Source: Pseudomonadota bacterium
Lineage (GTDB): Bacteria; Pseudomonadota; Alphaproteobacteria; Rickettsiales; UBA6187
DNA: 64,000 nucleotides
Assembly: GCA_027620075.1 (NCBI GenBank)
Contig: JAQCEY010000002.1
Location: 104,358 to 168,357 of the forward strand
Direction of reading: 5' to 3'
The notes beneath the pieces are model-generated. The model did no database searches. It saw only the letters and a list, made by a program, of their open reading frames with translations, and was not told the origin of the DNA. The translations under genes and the position numbers were made by a program. Every line of letters starts with the position of its first letter. Position 1 is the first letter of the stretch. Shown in pieces: positions 8,914 to 63,204 of the stretch.

Positions 8914-8982
8914 GTCATGCCGAACTTGTTTCGGCATCTAAAGTGCGGCAAAAGTAGAACCTGAAATAAATGCTTCGATGAC
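8914..8982. repeat. Type A GTCAT...ATGAC double-hairpin repeat, copy A1
   Basis: GTCATGCCGAACTTGTTTCGGCATCT...CTGAAATAAATGCTTCGATGAC. It has the same architecture as 25516..25583, 47869..47932 and 55993..56059. Confidence 0.75.
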
Positions 8983-25246: not shown

Positions 25247-25261
25247 AGAGGAATGTTATAT

Positions 25262-25401
25262 TATAGTGTCGTAACTTTTCAAAAAGCGTTGTCATCCCCG
25301 ACTTGTTCGGGGATCTTGAATAAGTTAAAATGAGATCCCCCTATAATTTTCTACGAAAATTCGGGGGATGACGGCATTTTTGAAAAGGTAATTTTACTAT
25401 A
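25262..25401. repeat. Type B palindromic repeat (about 140 bp), copy B1
   Basis: TATAGT...AACTTTTCAAAAAGCGTT-GTCATCCCCGACTTGTTCGGGGATC...GATCCCCCTATAATTTTCTACGAAAATTCGGGGGATGAC...TTTTTGAAAAGGT...ACTATA. About 85 percent identical to the reverse complement of 44522..44663. Confidence 0.85.
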
Positions 25402-25496
25402 GGAACCTCTGCAAAAGGAGTAAGGAGTTATAAAATTTAGTCCCTTCTCCCCAAGGGAGAGGGAGTAGTTTGTACACTTTTGCAGAGGCTGCTATA
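25396..25496. repeat. Type C palindromic repeat, short form, copy C1
   Basis: ACTATAGGAACCTCTGCAAAAGG...CCCTTCTCCCCAAGGGAGAGGGAG...CTTTTGCAGAGGCTGCTATA. It shares the ACTATA junction with B1. Confidence 0.8.
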
Positions 25497-25515: not shown

Positions 25516-25583
25516 GTCAACCTGAATATTGTTTCAGGTTCTCTCATAAAAAATAACAGATGCTGAAATAAATTCAGCATGAC
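25516..25583. repeat. Type A double-hairpin repeat, copy A2
   Basis: GTCAACCTGAATATTGTTTCAGGTT...GATGCTGAAATAAATTCAGCATGAC. It covers the track start codon at 25579 of the next ORF. Confidence 0.8.
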
Positions 25584-44485: not shown

Positions 44486-44521
44486 TATTTTTTATAAATA
44501 TTTAAGTTTTTTACAGGATTA

Positions 44522-44663
44522 TATAGTAAATTAACTTTTCAACAATGCTGTCATCCCCCGAATTTTCATAGAAAATTATAGGGGGATCTCGTTTTAATTT
44601 ATACAGATCCCCGAACAAGTCGGGGATGACAATTTCTAACTCTTGAAAAGTTACGTTACTATA
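44522..44663. repeat. Type B palindromic repeat, copy B2 (inverted relative to B1)
   Basis: TATAGT...GTCATCCCCCGAATTTTCATAGAAAATTATAGGGGGATC...GATCCCCGAACAAGTCGGGGATGAC...ACTATA. Confidence 0.85.
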
Positions 44664-44796
44664 GTTATAAACTGTTGAAAATCAAGATACGTAAATCGGG
44701 TGGTGTATAATAAAAATATAAGCAGGTTAGAATATAGGTTTGATATTGTTTAAAAACGGCATTATATTTAAAAACCTAACCTAAAAAAAGAAATAA

Positions 44797-52164: not shown

Positions 52165-53622
52165 CTAGGCAGCCAGCTTTTTCTTTAATATTTCGTTTAC
52201 CACCTGTGGATTGGCTTTTCCTTGCGAAGCTTTCATGGTTTGTCCTACAAAGAACCCGAATAATTTATCCTTACCCGAACGGTATTGTTCAACTTTATCC
52301 TGATTTGAGTCTAATATCTCGTCTATCATTTGTTCTATAGCACCCGTATCGGTAACTTGTTTAAGACCTTTTTCCTCAACTATAGAATCTGCGTCCTTAC
52401 CGGTTTCATACATGATGGCAAAAACTTCCTTGGCTATCTTGCCGGATATCGTATTATCCTTAATAAGATCAAGAAGACCGCCTAATTGCTTAGCTGAAAC
52501 AGGAGAGTCCTCAATATCATTACCGCCTTTTTTCAAAGCACCGAACAATTCCCCCGTCACCCAGTTAGCGGCAAGTTTAGGGTCGTGTCCTTTTGCCACT
52601 TCCTCGAAATACTCTGCGGTCGTCTTATCGGCTACGATAACAGAAGCATCATAAGCTGAAAGCCCCATATGTATCACGTAACGTTCTTTTTTTTCGTCAG
52701 GCAATTCCGGCAGTGTATCACGCAATTTTTGTACATATTCTTCTGTAAGCTCTAAAGGAAGTAAATCAGGGTCGGGGAAGTAGCGATAGTCATGAGCATC
52801 TTCCTTGCTTCTCATTGTTCTTGTTTCTCCCTTTACCGAATCAAAAAGACGTGTTTCCTGATCTATCTTGCCGCCTGTTTCATATGCTTCCACATGGCGG
52901 TTTGCCTCATATGCTATAGCCTGCTGTAAGAAACGCACCGAGTTGAGGTTTTTTATCTCACATCTGGTACGCAGCTCATCGGAACCTACGGGACGCACCG
53001 AAACGTTAGCGTCACAACGCATAGAGCCTTTCTCCATATCACCGTCACAAGTTCCCAGATAACGCAGAATAGTGCGTAATTTTTTCATATATTCGGCGGC
53101 TTCCTCACCCGAACGCATATCGGGTTTTGAAACTATCTCCATTAAAGCGATGCCAGAACGATTCAGGTCTATGAACGAGCTGTCGGGGGACTGGTCGTGC
53201 ATTGATTTTCCTGCGTCCTGCTCAATATGGATACGCTCAACGCCTACTTCACGTGTGGAACCGTCTTTCATATCAAGCACAACAGTTCCCTCGCCCACTA
53301 TGGGGTCGGAAAATTGCGATATCTGATATCCTTGCGGCAGGTCTGCATAAAAATAGTTTTTTCTGTCAAATATGGAGCGTAAATTTATTTTTGCCTTTAA
53401 GCCCAAACCGGTACGCACCGCCTGACGCACACATTCTTTATTTATCACCGGCAGCATTCCGGGCATAGCGGCATCTACAAGTGATACCTGCGTGTTCGGC
53501 TCCGCTCCGAAGAAAGTTGATGAGCCTGAGAATAATTTTGATTCCGAGGTTATCTGGGCATGTACTTCAAGTCCTATTACAATTTCCCAGTCGCCCGTAT
53601 TTCCTTTAATAATCTGTGTCAT
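52165..53622 (-). CDS. gatB: Asp/Glu-tRNA amidotransferase subunit B
   Basis: 485 aa with [20 protein letters not shown] and [10 protein letters not shown]. Confidence 0.95.
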
Positions 53623-53678
53623 AATATAGTTTCTAGTTATTGGTTATTATTAATTCGTTTTTTAAAACAGTCCCACAT

Positions 53679-53729
53679 GTCACTCCCCGCTTTAATTGAG
53701 AGAAGATCCACGCATAAAGCGGGGATGAC
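53679..53729. repeat. GTCA...TGAC palindromic element. Its right 36 nt (53694-53729) form the left inverted repeat flanking the GIY-YIG gene.
   Basis: GTCACTCCCCGCTTTAATTGAGAGAAGATCCACGCATAAAGCGGGGATGAC. The reverse complement of 53694-53729 matches 54046-54081 at 34 of 36 positions. Confidence 0.85.
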
Positions 53730-53732
53730 AGT

Positions 53733-54026
53733 TTAGGTTATTTTCGTATATAAATCTTCCCATGTCGGATTCATTTGTTCTATTACTTTTATTTTCCAAT
53801 CTCTGCTCCGGCGTTTTAACCTTTTTTCTCTGTTTATTGCAACTTCCACTTCTTCAAACACTTCGTAATAGACAAGAGTTTTTGTATTATATTTTTTAGT
53901 AAAGCCTTCTACCACATTATTTTTATGCTCATAAACCCTTTTTACTAAATTTGATGTTACACCTGTATAAAAAACACCTTCTTTTTTATTTGTAAGAATA
54001 TAAACATAATAATTCTTGCTGTTCAT
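53733..54026 (-). CDS. Small GIY-YIG nuclease family protein (COG2827/UPF0213-like)
   Basis: 97 aa. YYVYILTN...GVFYTGVTSNLVKRVYEHK...REKRLK corresponds to the GIY / YIG / Arg / Glu motifs. Confidence 0.82.
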   Translation of the reverse strand: MNSKNYYVYILTNKKEGVFYTGVTSNLVKRVYEHKNNVVEGFTKKYNTKTLVYYEVFEEVEVAINREKRLKRRSRDWKIKVIEQMNPTWEDLYTKIT

Positions 54027-54045
54027 ATAATTAACTTAAAAACTT

Positions 54046-54081
54046 GTCATCCCCGCTTTATGCGGGGATCTTCTGTCAATT
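54046..54081. repeat. Right inverted repeat flanking the GIY-YIG gene
   Basis: GTCATCCCCGCTTTATGCGGGGATCTTCTGTCAATT. Both stem arms and the following CTT match hairpin 1 of type B repeats (GTCATCCCCG-N7-CGGGGATCTT). Confidence 0.85.
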
Positions 54082-54098
54082 TAACAAGATTCTCTTCT

Positions 54099-54455
54099 CT
54101 AATTTGTTTTGAATCCTACAGGAACGGTAAATTTTATCCTGCTGATAGTTTCCGTACTTTTTTCGTCTTCTTTGCCTTTTTCACCTTTCACGCCTCCCTT
54201 GGCGTTCACTACGAATATCTTAGCGTCCGCCGAAACCTCACCTGAAGTTTTACTGGTTTTGGTAGTTGAATCCATTACCTGTACGGCAATATCAAATGCG
54301 ACTTCCTGTCTGTCCACCTCGTTTTCCACACGTGAATCATATGCAGAAGGAGCTATACATCCCTTTGAAGATTTATCTATCTCCTTACCGGCATCATAAA
54401 CACCCTCTACTATATCAACCAGTGATTTTTTTATAAATGATTTAAGTTCAAGCAT
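54099..54455 (-). CDS. Small hypothetical protein with a trypco2-like sequence pattern
   Basis: 118 aa with an N-terminal helix (LKSFIKKSLVDIVEGV), then EVAFDIAVQV...KIFVVNAKGGVKGEKG...ISRIKFTVPV. This resembles, from memory, the trypsin-co-occurring domain 2 pattern. It needs an HMM check. Confidence 0.45.
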   Translation of the reverse strand: MLELKSFIKKSLVDIVEGVYDAGKEIDKSSKGCIAPSAYDSRVENEVDRQEVAFDIAVQVMDSTTKTSKTSGEVSADAKIFVVNAKGGVKGEKGKEDEKSTETISRIKFTVPVGFKTN

Positions 54456-54517
54456 TTTTATGTCCTTTTTTTGTTGTCACCATGAAAGCCGCTATCAAGA
54501 TAGCAGTTTAACCTTTC

Positions 54518-55975
54518 CTAAAGCCCCTTAAACTCGGCAGCCTTTTCTAACGTACCTGCTACCTTGAACAGCGTTTCCTCATCAAACGACCTTCCGATTA
54601 ATTGTAATCCAAGCGGCAGACCTTCACTGTTCAAGCCTGTAGGGATTGACATTCCCGGCAATCCTGCCAAAGATGCAGGAACGGTGAAAACGTCATTTAA
54701 GTACATAGTTACAGGATCCATTTTTTCACCTGCTGCAAAAGCTGCCGTAGGGGTTGCCGGGGTCAGGATAACATCGCATTTTTTATAAGCATCGTCAAAA
54801 TCCCTTGCTATCAGCGTACGTATTTTTTGTGCCTTCTTATAATACGCATCATAATATCCTGCCGATAACACATATGTGCCTATCATGAGACGGCGTTTTA
54901 CCTCGTCACCGAAACCCTCGGAGCGTGTTGCCTCATACATTTCATCTAGTGACATACCTTTTTCAAGAACACGTAAACCATAGCGTACACCGTCATAGCG
55001 TGAAAGATTGGCGGAGGCTTCCGCAGGGGCGATAATATAATAGGTAGGCAATGCATATTTTGTATGCGGCAATGATATATCTACAATCTTTGCACCTGCC
55101 GCTTTTAGCATATTCTTGCCGTTTTCCCATAATTTCTCTATTTCAGGTGACATGCCGTCTTGATGGTATTCTTTAGGGATACCTATTTTCAAACCTTTGA
55201 TATCTTTTCCCACCGCCTTGGAAAATCCCGGAGTTTCCATAGGGGTTGAGGTGGAATCTTTTTCATCATATCCGCAAATTGCTTCAAGCATTATGGAGGC
55301 ATCTTTTACCGAACGTGTAAACACGCCTGCCTGATCAAGCGAGCTTGCAAAAGCTATCATGCCCCAGCGTGAACAGCGTCCGTATGTAGGCTTAATTCCC
55401 ACATTGCCGCAAAATGCCGCAGGCTGACGGATAGAACCACCCGTATCACTTCCCAACGCACCCATGCATAAGTGAGCCGAAACAGCCGCAGCAGAACCGC
55501 CAGACGAACCGCCCGGCACAAGGGCAGTATCATCACCTTTTCTTTTCCATGGGTTTTTTACAGAACCGTAATAGCTGTTAAGGTTACCCGAACCCATGGC
55601 AAATTCGTCCATATTAGTCTTACCCAGCATTACCGCACCTTGCGAAAACAAATTAGCCGTAACGGTTGATTCATAAGTAGGCGTGAACCCGTCCAAAATG
55701 TGCGAGCATGATGTTGACCTAACCCCTTTGGTGCAGAACAGGTCTTTTACACCTACAGGGATACCTTCTAATTTACCTACCTTGCCTTCTTTACGCCTTT
55801 TATCGGATTCCTTTGCCTGCTGTAAGGCTATTTCCGGTGTTTTGACCACGAACGCATTGAGGTCTTCTTTTTCCACTGCGTCTATATGGGTCTTTGTCAA
55901 CTCTTCAGAGGTAAAGTCTCCATTCTTTAATCCGGCTAATGCTTCTGCTATTGTAAGTCTGTTTAGTTGTGTCAT
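54518..55975 (-). CDS. gatA: Asp/Glu-tRNA amidotransferase subunit A
   Basis: 485 aa with the amidase signature [11 protein letters not shown] and [10 protein letters not shown]. Confidence 0.95.
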
Positions 55976-55992: not shown

Positions 55993-56059
55993 GTCACACT
56001 GAATTTATTTCAGTATCTCCTTTTAATTTCATTAGATGCTGAAACAAGTTCAGCATGAC
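55993..56059. repeat. Type A double-hairpin repeat, copy A4, in the gatC-gatA intercistronic spacer
   Basis: GTCACACTGAATTTATTTCAGTAT...GATGCTGAAACAAGTTCAGCATGAC. Confidence 0.8.
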
Positions 56060-62941: not shown

Positions 62942-62954
62942 AATTTGTCCATTA

Positions 62955-63096
62955 TATAGTATTTTTACTTTTTAAGAGTTAAATTTGTCATCCGCAACTT
63001 GTTCGGAGATCTCTATAAATTTAAATAAGATTCCCCTATAATTTGCTTCGTAAATTCATAGGGATGAAAGCATTGTTCAAAAGTGCAAATACTATA
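62955..63096. repeat. Type B palindromic repeat, copy B3 (diverged)
   Basis: TATAGT...GTCATCCGCAACTTGTTCGGAGATC...TTCCCCTATAATTTGCTTCGTAAATTCATAGGGATGA...ACTATA. Confidence 0.75.
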
Positions 63097-63204
63097 TTCT
63101 AAACCATGTAAATATTACAAGCTTTTTTAAATGTTTATTAAAGTTTATACATAAGAACACTAAAGTTCTTTTTGCCATTGAAAGGTTTTTGCGTTTCCTT
63201 CCCA

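Follow-up and report, generated by a model that had tools for sequence, protein, structure and literature searches.

In a 64,000-nucleotide stretch of the metagenome-assembled genome of a Pseudomonadota bacterium of the order Rickettsiales (UBA6187; GenBank assembly GCA_027620075.1, contig JAQCEY010000002.1, positions 104,358 to 168,357; the whole stretch is called the window below), the genes gatA and gatB are separated by a spacer of 895 bp (53623-54517) that carries two small open reading frames (ORFs) of 97 and 118 aa. Sequence comparison indicates that the spacer gene of 97 aa is very probably a resident nuclease gene of the Ssn family, lying among its cognate SRM hairpins, with a Trypco2/Pepco-like gene in an adjacent cargo slot. 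The Ssn family was described in Nature Communications as a group of approximately 94-aa single-domain GIY-YIG proteins (CDD cd10448) that bind their hairpin repeat solely as single-stranded DNA (ssDNA) and cut a few nucleotides 5' of the hairpin, with ssDNA-only binding and 5' cutting demonstrated for four homologues (Chenal et al., 2025; PMC11893778). The Neisseria repeat, NTS (CGTCATTCCCGCGMAVGCGGGAATCYRG), has the old dRS3 repeat as its core, and its general form was named SRM. The same work described the NTS-ssnA-NTS architecture and hundreds of dispersed copies, found SRM enrichment in symbionts including Rickettsia and Wolbachia, compared the system explicitly with IS200/IS605 and REP/BIME, and proposed a domesticated element resembling an insertion sequence (IS) (PMC11893778). 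The original prediction for this locus, made from the window sequence, had paired a small GIY-YIG gene with GTCAT hairpins by analogy with REP/RAYT and knew of no established description of such a pairing. The nuclease/hairpin partnership is correct, but it was already described in 2025, together with its flanking architecture and the IS200/REP-RAYT analogy (Chenal et al., 2025).

The 97-aa ORF matches the GIY-YIG profile PF01541 over residues 5-79 (E=7e-15; 55.5 bits against a cut-off of 22.6) and contains no other domain, which confirms the domain call made from the letters alone. As a single-domain GIY-YIG protein it falls well within the limit of less than 150 aa used for the Ssn family (cd10448), and nearly all of its 7966 homologues at E<=1e-10 are 94-110 aa long. 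The gene, hereafter ssn, is an intact ORF under purifying selection, with a ratio of non-synonymous to synonymous substitution (dN/dS) of 0.04-0.20. Residues Y9, Y20 and E67 are offset by +3 from Y6, Y17 and E64 of the 94-aa SsnA, as read from the numbering rather than from an alignment, and may correspond to the catalytic residues named for SsnA. Three homologues that are 53-61% identical to the window protein (E 1e-26 to 1e-34) adjoin the exact NTS 28-mer of Neisseria, in a cyanobacterium, a betaproteobacterium and a member of the Acidiferrobacteraceae (L014, L018, L057). The Pfam search found no match to the HUH/Y1 transposase family Y1_Tnp in the 97-aa protein, its score against the group I intron endonuclease model TIGR01453 was 19 bits against a cut-off of 56, and its nearest PDB entries belong weakly (E=2e-5) to the sister family UPF0213. 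NCBIfam and PADLOC gave nothing useful for either of the two ORFs. There is no second copy of ssn in the 64-kb window. Assignment to the Ssn family is thus based on the single GIY-YIG domain of 97 aa, the SRM-like arms beside the gene, the hairpin enrichment at its homologues and the NTS 28-mers next to some of them.

The gene is bracketed by an inverted repeat with arms of 40 nt that are 93% complementary; the 36-bp inverted repeats noted originally are therefore real and slightly longer than was given. The ungapped score of this repeat is 31, as against a mean of about 8 at control positions of the same geometry in other loci. Each arm contains GTCATCCCCGCTTTATGCG(G/T)GGATC, in which GTC is followed by an 8-bp stem that encloses a 5-nt loop, and the returning strand of the stem by C. 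Folded as ssDNA, both arms give hairpins (z-scores -3.9 to -4.8), and the structural definition (GTC, 8-bp stem, loop, C) holds on both sides of the gene. Perfect hairpins of this form number 9 in 64 kb, compared with 0.58 expected. The published SRM motif, HGTCWYN(0-2)YYVSBRHN(0-5)WNVSBRGN(0-2)RNCYNB, which is sought on both gene sides within 500 bp, has 2 strict matches in 64 kb (0.16 expected). The pattern GTCATCCCCG-N7-CGGGGATC, with up to 3 mismatches, occurs five times in the window against an expectation of 0.03, namely in the two arms and in the dispersed repeats of about 140 bp designated type B, at 25291, 44606(-) and 62987, which bears out the original observation that arms and type B repeats have a hairpin in common.

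The same association is found well beyond the window. A sample of 80 homologous loci, 45-66% identical and from very different phyla, was taken from a genome collection without the source species, in which the best match to the window protein is 65% identical. About one-third of these loci have a strong inverted repeat around the gene, with arms that are almost always a GTCAT-stem-loop-stem-ATC hairpin such as GTCATTCCGGCGAAAGCCGGAATCCAG. Across the 80 loci there are 4.17 hairpins per kb in the 150 bp nearest the gene and 0.149 per kb at distances above 300 bp, a 28-fold difference, which shows that the proposed GIY-YIG/hairpin pairing is real. The stems vary between lineages, and the GTC...C frame and the base pairing are retained. 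Strict SRMs were present on both sides of the gene in 18 of 72 testable loci and on one side in a further 12. That the 97-aa ORF is an ordinary resident gene, its flanking hairpins being transcription terminators or attenuators and its inverted repeat a coincidence, appears extremely improbable. GC-rich stems in intergenic operon DNA would suit terminators, but the hairpins have no T-tracts and the repeat reaches 15 nt past the palindromic stem, while coincidence is made unlikely by the conservation of the GTCAT/ATC flanks and by an enrichment that is 28-fold next to homologues across phyla. A terminator reading was rejected because no terminator-like site is called in the gatA-gatB spacer.

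Relatives of the locus show the gene in several arrangements. In two close relatives of the gene the layout is undecayed. At a different chromosomal site (L086), the order is gpmI-E1-ssn-E2-118-aa-ORF homologue-E3-lepB, with an ssn product 87% identical in amino acid sequence to that of the window. The E units are about 83 bp long and have two hairpins each, GTCAT-hpA-GATC...GATC-hpB-ATGAC, and E1 and E2 are inverted copies. The sole nucleotide block common to L086 and the window runs from arm to arm (window 53694-54082; 81% identical). In a sister lineage (L003), whose flanks are 92.5% and 95.6% identical in nucleotides and whose host genes have a synonymous divergence (dS) of 0.24-0.37, the gatA-gatB spacer is 213 bp and contains neither ORF. 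The empty site that the original prediction had proposed to look for in related genomes thus exists as regards both ORFs, yet it is not a clean empty allele: a different unit of two hairpins is present there, together with a degenerate version of the window's CCCCGC/CTTTATG hairpin. Homology between the two stops 4 nt past the gatA stop codon and restarts at TAAAGCGGGG(G)AGTGAC, and an 11-bp direct repeat, TAAAGCGGGGA, lies at both edges of the window's ssn segment. With two haplotypes, the difference may stem from loss of the segment by deletion between hairpin sequences or from its insertion through recombination inside such sequences.

A more distant lineage (L091-L096) has the order gatA-DUF6680-E-ssn-E-gatB. 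The DUF6680 gene (222 aa; 2670-3338 in L091, also in L092-L096) stands in the slot of the window's Trypco2-like ORF and has a weak PADLOC match to PDC-M38B (E=0.008). Another relative, known by gene order only, has GIY-YIG genes in both spacers (gatC-GIY-gatA-GIY-118-aa-ORF homologue-gatB). Four states of the gat spacers can thus be distinguished: empty with a remnant; ssn with a Pepco-like gene; ssn with DUF6680; and ssn in both spacers. A metagenome protein scan gave 80 further loci, none of which is syntenic with the window, and an exact metagenome DNA scan with the 5' end of gatB, for more spacer haplotypes, found nothing.

Comparison of loci gives good evidence for movement of ssn cassettes as hairpin-bounded units, both horizontally and inside a single genome. 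When the window is set against L091, dS is 3.2 for gatA and 2.5 for gatB, values at which synonymous sites are saturated, and 0.45 for ssn. In a codon-identity test confined to conserved residues, which controls for amino acid composition, 65 of 79 ssn codons were identical, compared with 42.5±4.3 expected from gatCAB (z=5.2); none of 200,000 simulation runs reached the observed value. The ssn genes of the window and L086 have a dS of 1.4-1.7, so ssn is not generally constrained at synonymous sites. Taken together, these results indicate that the ssn genes of the window and L091 have a more recent ancestor than their host operons, even though they occupy the same site. Purely vertical inheritance of ssn, which the L091 synteny had suggested, was accordingly rejected as the sole explanation by the codon-identity test, with general constraint excluded by L086.

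Further evidence comes from an all-against-all nucleotide comparison of 163 ssn loci. In many pairs, nucleotide homology is confined to the ORF and 25-120 bp on each side of it, amid kilobases of unrelated flank. Examples are L016 and L024 (89% identical over 376 bp) and loci of a Syntrophobacteraceae and a Nitrospiraceae genome (L011 and L024; 80% over 356 bp). Two contigs of a single Candidatus Saccharibacteria metagenome-assembled genome (MAG; L007 and L080) have ssn cassettes that are 81% identical over 363 bp; their flanks are unrelated, and homology stops about 35 bp beyond either end of the ORF. Homology in such pairs begins at the outer GTCAT and terminates at the outer ATGAC. The suggestion that the small GIY-YIG gene is itself mobile therefore gains comparative support from its absence in L003, its low dS relative to L091 and the homology edges at hairpins, but the target-site duplication for which a check had been proposed was not seen in any ssn locus pair with hairpin-bounded homology.

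Several points weigh against this account of the gene and its history. The strict SRM motif has no match within 53201-54600, and hence in neither arm, since the CTTTATG loop breaks one motif position; when one substitution is allowed, the motif matches both arms, at 53702-53730(-) and 54045-54073(+). The window arms are oriented ATGAC-gene-GTCAT, with GTCAT inward, which is opposite to the majority NTS-ssnA-NTS topology; among the 80 loci, 20 have hairpins in the (+,-) orientation and 3 in the (-,+) orientation, GTCAT facing outward in most. The low-dS signal depends on a single pair of 97-codon genes, and the low value could also reflect gene conversion from an unseen paralogue.

With regard to orientation, the outer hairpins are gone in the window. 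Upstream of the arm, the sequence runs directly into the stop codon of the 118-aa ORF; downstream, a 3' half-hairpin, TAAAGCGGGGAGTGAC, alone remains. This remnant (53678-53693), which contains one of the 11-bp direct repeats and at which L003 homology resumes, forms a hairpin with the downstream arm (-14.2 kcal/mol). The 40-nt inverted repeat thus represents the inner, gene-proximal hairpins of two partly decayed flanking two-hairpin units, which explains why GTCAT faces the gene in the window and outward at most other loci. The window copy, having lost its outer hairpins, is most likely resident or domesticated and not actively moving.

By analogy with the family members studied by Chenal and colleagues, the window protein would bind the GTCAT-stem-loop-ATC hairpin in ssDNA only (PMC11893778). 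Such ssDNA might be exposed during replication or in DNA entering by transformation or conjugation. A nick would be placed a few nucleotides 5' of GTCAT, with the reverse strand left uncut (PMC11893778). Nicks at dispersed hairpins could make these into recombination hot spots, through which SRM-bounded segments, such as ssn and its neighbour gene, might be gained, lost and exchanged between lineages. A hydrolytic nuclease with one cut site per strand is insufficient alone for transposition or homing. It is conceivable, though doubtful, that cassettes of ssn and SRM are mobile elements in their own right, with a mechanism of a new kind: bounded by GTCAT hairpins, moved or homed via single-strand nicks of the GIY-YIG nuclease without target-site duplication, and able to carry or shuffle small cargo genes (a Pepco-like toxin gene in the window; DUF6680 in a relative).

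The original prediction went further, to hypotheses that amount to an active IS-like transposon, in which Ssn acts as the transposase, the hairpin units form the ends, and the type B repeats, which resemble miniature inverted-repeat transposable elements (MITEs), are mobilized in trans. Such a transposon would account for the arm-to-arm block as the exact unit conserved with L086 at another chromosomal site, for the crisp GTCAT...ATGAC boundaries across phyla and the two cassettes in one MAG, and for the presence or absence of ssn between close lineages with a dS below that of host genes. This explanation nevertheless seems unlikely, as no target-site duplication was seen, the hydrolytic single-domain nuclease has no strand-transfer domain, inversion of the flanking hairpins leaves each strand with a single cleavable site, 64 kb hold a single ssn, and transposition is undemonstrated in the literature. 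The description of the locus as a miniature IS fits the window copy poorly, since relatives have complete two-hairpin units with GTCAT...ATGAC ends and the window retains only the inner hairpins. The likeness to REP/BIME-RAYT systems, which employ a Y1 HUH nuclease related to IS200/IS605, is considerable: a single-copy nuclease gene flanked by inverted hairpin repeats, hairpins dispersed genome-wide and often paired in alternating orientation, and recognition of an ssDNA hairpin. However, Ssn has a GIY-YIG hydrolase fold rather than an HUH fold with a covalent tyrosine intermediate, and this unrelated fold offers no obvious strand-transfer chemistry.

As for the type B repeats, their full copies (25250-25410, 44510-44672 and 62945-63105) consist of a two-hairpin SRM core set inside outer inverted ends of about 28 nt, TATAGT...ACTATA. 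Their cores are 81-83% identical to the units of about 83 bp that flank ssn and the 118-aa-ORF homologue in L086, and this common family of units speaks for mobilization in trans. At 254-364 of L003, the sister lineage has an element of 117 bp whose terminal inverted repeats (TIRs; CCGTTTCGGAATTGTACGTTTAATG...) are perfect over 25 bp and which encloses one SRM hairpin, GTCATGCTGAATTTATTTCAGCATC. It is missing at the equivalent window site (about 57941/57942), which makes it a clean MITE insertion polymorphism. SRM hairpins can thus ride inside TIR-bounded elements and may ride on elements moved by something other than Ssn. The outer TIRs of the type B repeats themselves, together with this independently polymorphic TIR element, weaken the case for their mobilization by Ssn. 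The type B termini appear to resemble the TIRs of neisserial Correia elements, or intergenic mosaic elements, which have TATAGT...ACTATA ends and coexist with dRS3/NTS-type hairpins. Type B repeats differ from Correia elements in having an SRM hairpin pair inside the TIR-bounded repeat. A further hairpin pair lies 150 bp from a type B repeat, at 25516-25583.

A free-standing homing endonuclease gene, of the kind of phage Seg/Mob, could also have invaded the spacer by cutting an empty allele, the hairpins being an incidental target. Like T4 Seg and the relatives of I-TevI, ssn encodes a GIY-YIG catalytic domain, lies between conserved genes, is patchily distributed among close relatives (the site being without ssn in the sister lineage and occupied at the equivalent position in distant L091) and is less diverged than host genes. 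Those enzymes, however, are 200 or more aa in length, possess a DNA-binding domain and cut the double-stranded DNA of the empty allele, whereas the window protein has 97 aa and no DNA-binding domain and belongs to a family that cuts only ssDNA adjoining a hairpin. In addition, hairpins accompany the gene to unrelated sites and phyla, the L003 site has its own hairpin unit and hairpin remnant, and no co-conversion tracts are seen beside the cassette, gatB identity being about 80% up to the junction. A homing origin is therefore considered very improbable.

The 118-aa ORF is a divergent member of the Trypco2/Pepco family (PF19631). Its own Pfam search left PF19631 unmatched, both at the gathering score and even at E<=10, the best match being DUF6414 (E=0.07), and one close homologue matches PF19631 at E=0.11. 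BLASTP, however, aligned the ORF along its whole length to a PF19631-annotated protein (P0315) with 41% identity over 115 aa (E=5e-15) and to a protein named 'trypco2 family protein' at E=1e-9. A profile search gave more than 1100 distant relatives of 105-160 aa, and Trypco2 is the only recurrent family, matched by 18 of 60 family members (best E=2.5e-5). The resemblance to trypco2 noted in the original prediction thus holds through transitive homology, but not through a Pfam match of the ORF itself. An AlphaFold2 model (pLDDT 71) has a helix at residues 4-29, long strands at 47-61 and 102-116 and a disordered loop; no PDB match was found. As in Trypco2/Pepco proteins, there are an N-terminal helix, an (I/V)EFD(I/V)AV strand and a C-terminal SRIKF-VP strand. 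Unlike them, the ORF is below the Pfam threshold, lies amid SRM hairpin units beside ssn and has neither a trypsin- or caspase-type protease nor a STAND/Avs sensor next to it. Its neighbours are gatA and ssn, and no protease gene adjoins it in the window, in L086 or on the contig of P0008.

The name Trypco2 (also Pepco) comes from conflict systems in which the domain occurs together with trypsin (PMC7159879), and a 2025 preprint describes Pepco as a pore-forming beta-barrel toxin unleashed by proteolysis. Nuclease and protease-activated toxin might accordingly cooperate as a two-gene conflict module, for defence or for toxin-based addiction. In favour of such a module, the close homologues of the 118-aa ORF, two among 5.8 billion proteins, both adjoin ssn as the window ORF does, at two different loci. 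We regard it as quite improbable, given that DUF6680 stands in the equivalent slot in L091, that more distant homologues (L087, L088, L090) have no ssn neighbour, that gene order varies between loci and hairpin units bracket each gene separately, and that there are zero PADLOC matches and no adjacent protease gene. The substitution in L091 and the solitary distant homologues also led to rejection of the 118-aa ORF as an obligatory Ssn partner, and on the same grounds it is read as cargo in a variable slot beside the resident ssn gene. One of the distant homologues (L090, 411-2611) shares its 2.7-kb contig with a replication gene (Rep3) and a HigB/HigA-like pair, Gp49/HTH_37; the contig is probably a small plasmid with an orphan Trypco2-like gene.

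The features of the locus are listed in Table 1.

Table 1. Coordinates of the gat genes, the ssn segment and the SRM-bearing repeats in the window.
Feature	Position	Strand	Description or evidence
Type B repeat core	25290-25373	+	SRM unit of ~83 bp with two hairpins, GTCAT-hp1-GATC...GATC-hp2-ATGAC; hp1 matches the strict SRM motif
Type B repeat core, second copy	44549-44634	-	Sequence comparison
gatB, 485 aa	52165-53622	-	Pfam GatB_N (E=6e-119), GatB_Yqey (E=2.5e-57)
Remnant 3' half of SRM hairpin	53678-53693	-	Reads TAAAGCGGGGAGTGAC in gat orientation; sequence reading and alignment
Downstream inverted-repeat arm	53691-53730	-	SRM-type hairpin core 53705-53729, GTCATCCCCGCTTTATGCGTGGATC, one stem mismatch
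ssn-like gene, 97-aa single-domain GIY-YIG nuclease	53733-54026	-	PF01541, hairpin flanks of homologues, dN/dS
Upstream inverted-repeat arm	54045-54084	+	SRM-type hairpin core 54046-54070, GTCATCCCCGCTTTATGCGGGGATC, perfect 8-bp stem
118-aa divergent Trypco2/Pepco-family ORF	54099-54455	-	Transitive homology, AlphaFold2 model
gatA, 485 aa	54518-55975	-	Pfam Amidase (E=8e-151)
SRM-type hairpin pair, gatC-gatA spacer	55993-56059	55993-56017(+), 56035-56059(-)	ATGCTGAA-type stems
gatC, 95 aa	56064-56351	-	Gene call; PF02686 in identical locus L001
Type B repeat core, third copy, degenerate	62979-63067	+	Sequence comparison

On the minus strand the genes follow one another in the order gatC, gatA, 118-aa ORF, ssn and gatB, and gene calls and Pfam matches confirm the separation of gatA and gatB by about 895 bp that first drew attention to the spacer. 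The gatC-gatA spacer also contains SRM-type hairpins, and in a relative it is occupied by a 99-aa GIY-YIG gene. The stem class of this hairpin pair differs from that of the ssn arms, and the pair is kept in L003 and in distant L091. Its conservation as far as L091, despite saturated synonymous sites in the flanking genes, suggests that the pair itself is under selection. A solitary perfect SRM-type hairpin at 8914-8938, GTCATGCCGAACTTGTTTCGGCATC, represents a third stem class. Rfam gave zero family matches anywhere in the 64-kb window.

In comparison with the Ssn/SRM system of N. meningitidis (SsnA), the window has the same single-domain GIY-YIG protein of about 95 aa, the same hairpin type on either side of the gene, GTC-AT...stem-loop...AT-C, whose non-palindromic flanks are conserved, dispersed hairpin copies elsewhere in the genome and a symbiont-type host. 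It differs in its stem, ATCCCCGC as against ATTCCCGC, with a compensatory T-A to C-G change, in its 5-nt loop, TTTAT, and in missing the strict SRM motif by one position. Further peculiarities of the window locus are its surviving, inward-facing hairpins beside the gene, the two-hairpin units of about 83 bp, the position inside the gatCAB operon and the Pepco-like neighbour.

What is new here is the comparative evidence that ssn cassettes are exchanged as hairpin-bounded units. The questions that the Ssn study left open were the role of Ssn outside Neisseria and whether NTS-ssnA-NTS is, or formerly was, mobile (PMC11893778). The window locus offers a compact natural test case, with four spacer states, an ssn gene younger than the host genes and homology edges at hairpin ends. 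For annotation, small genes labelled 'GIY-YIG nuclease family protein' that are accompanied by GTCAT hairpins should be read as Ssn/SRM units. If the cassettes were autonomously mobile, they would have in the gatCAB spacers of this clade of Rickettsiales a natural site for repeated landing, in which gain, loss and re-invasion can be read directly. If such movement proves true, Ssn/SRM would take a place beside the REP/RAYT and IS200 hairpin systems as their counterpart with a GIY-YIG nuclease, and the heavy load of hairpin repeats in symbionts of the Rickettsia and Wolbachia type would in part be explained.

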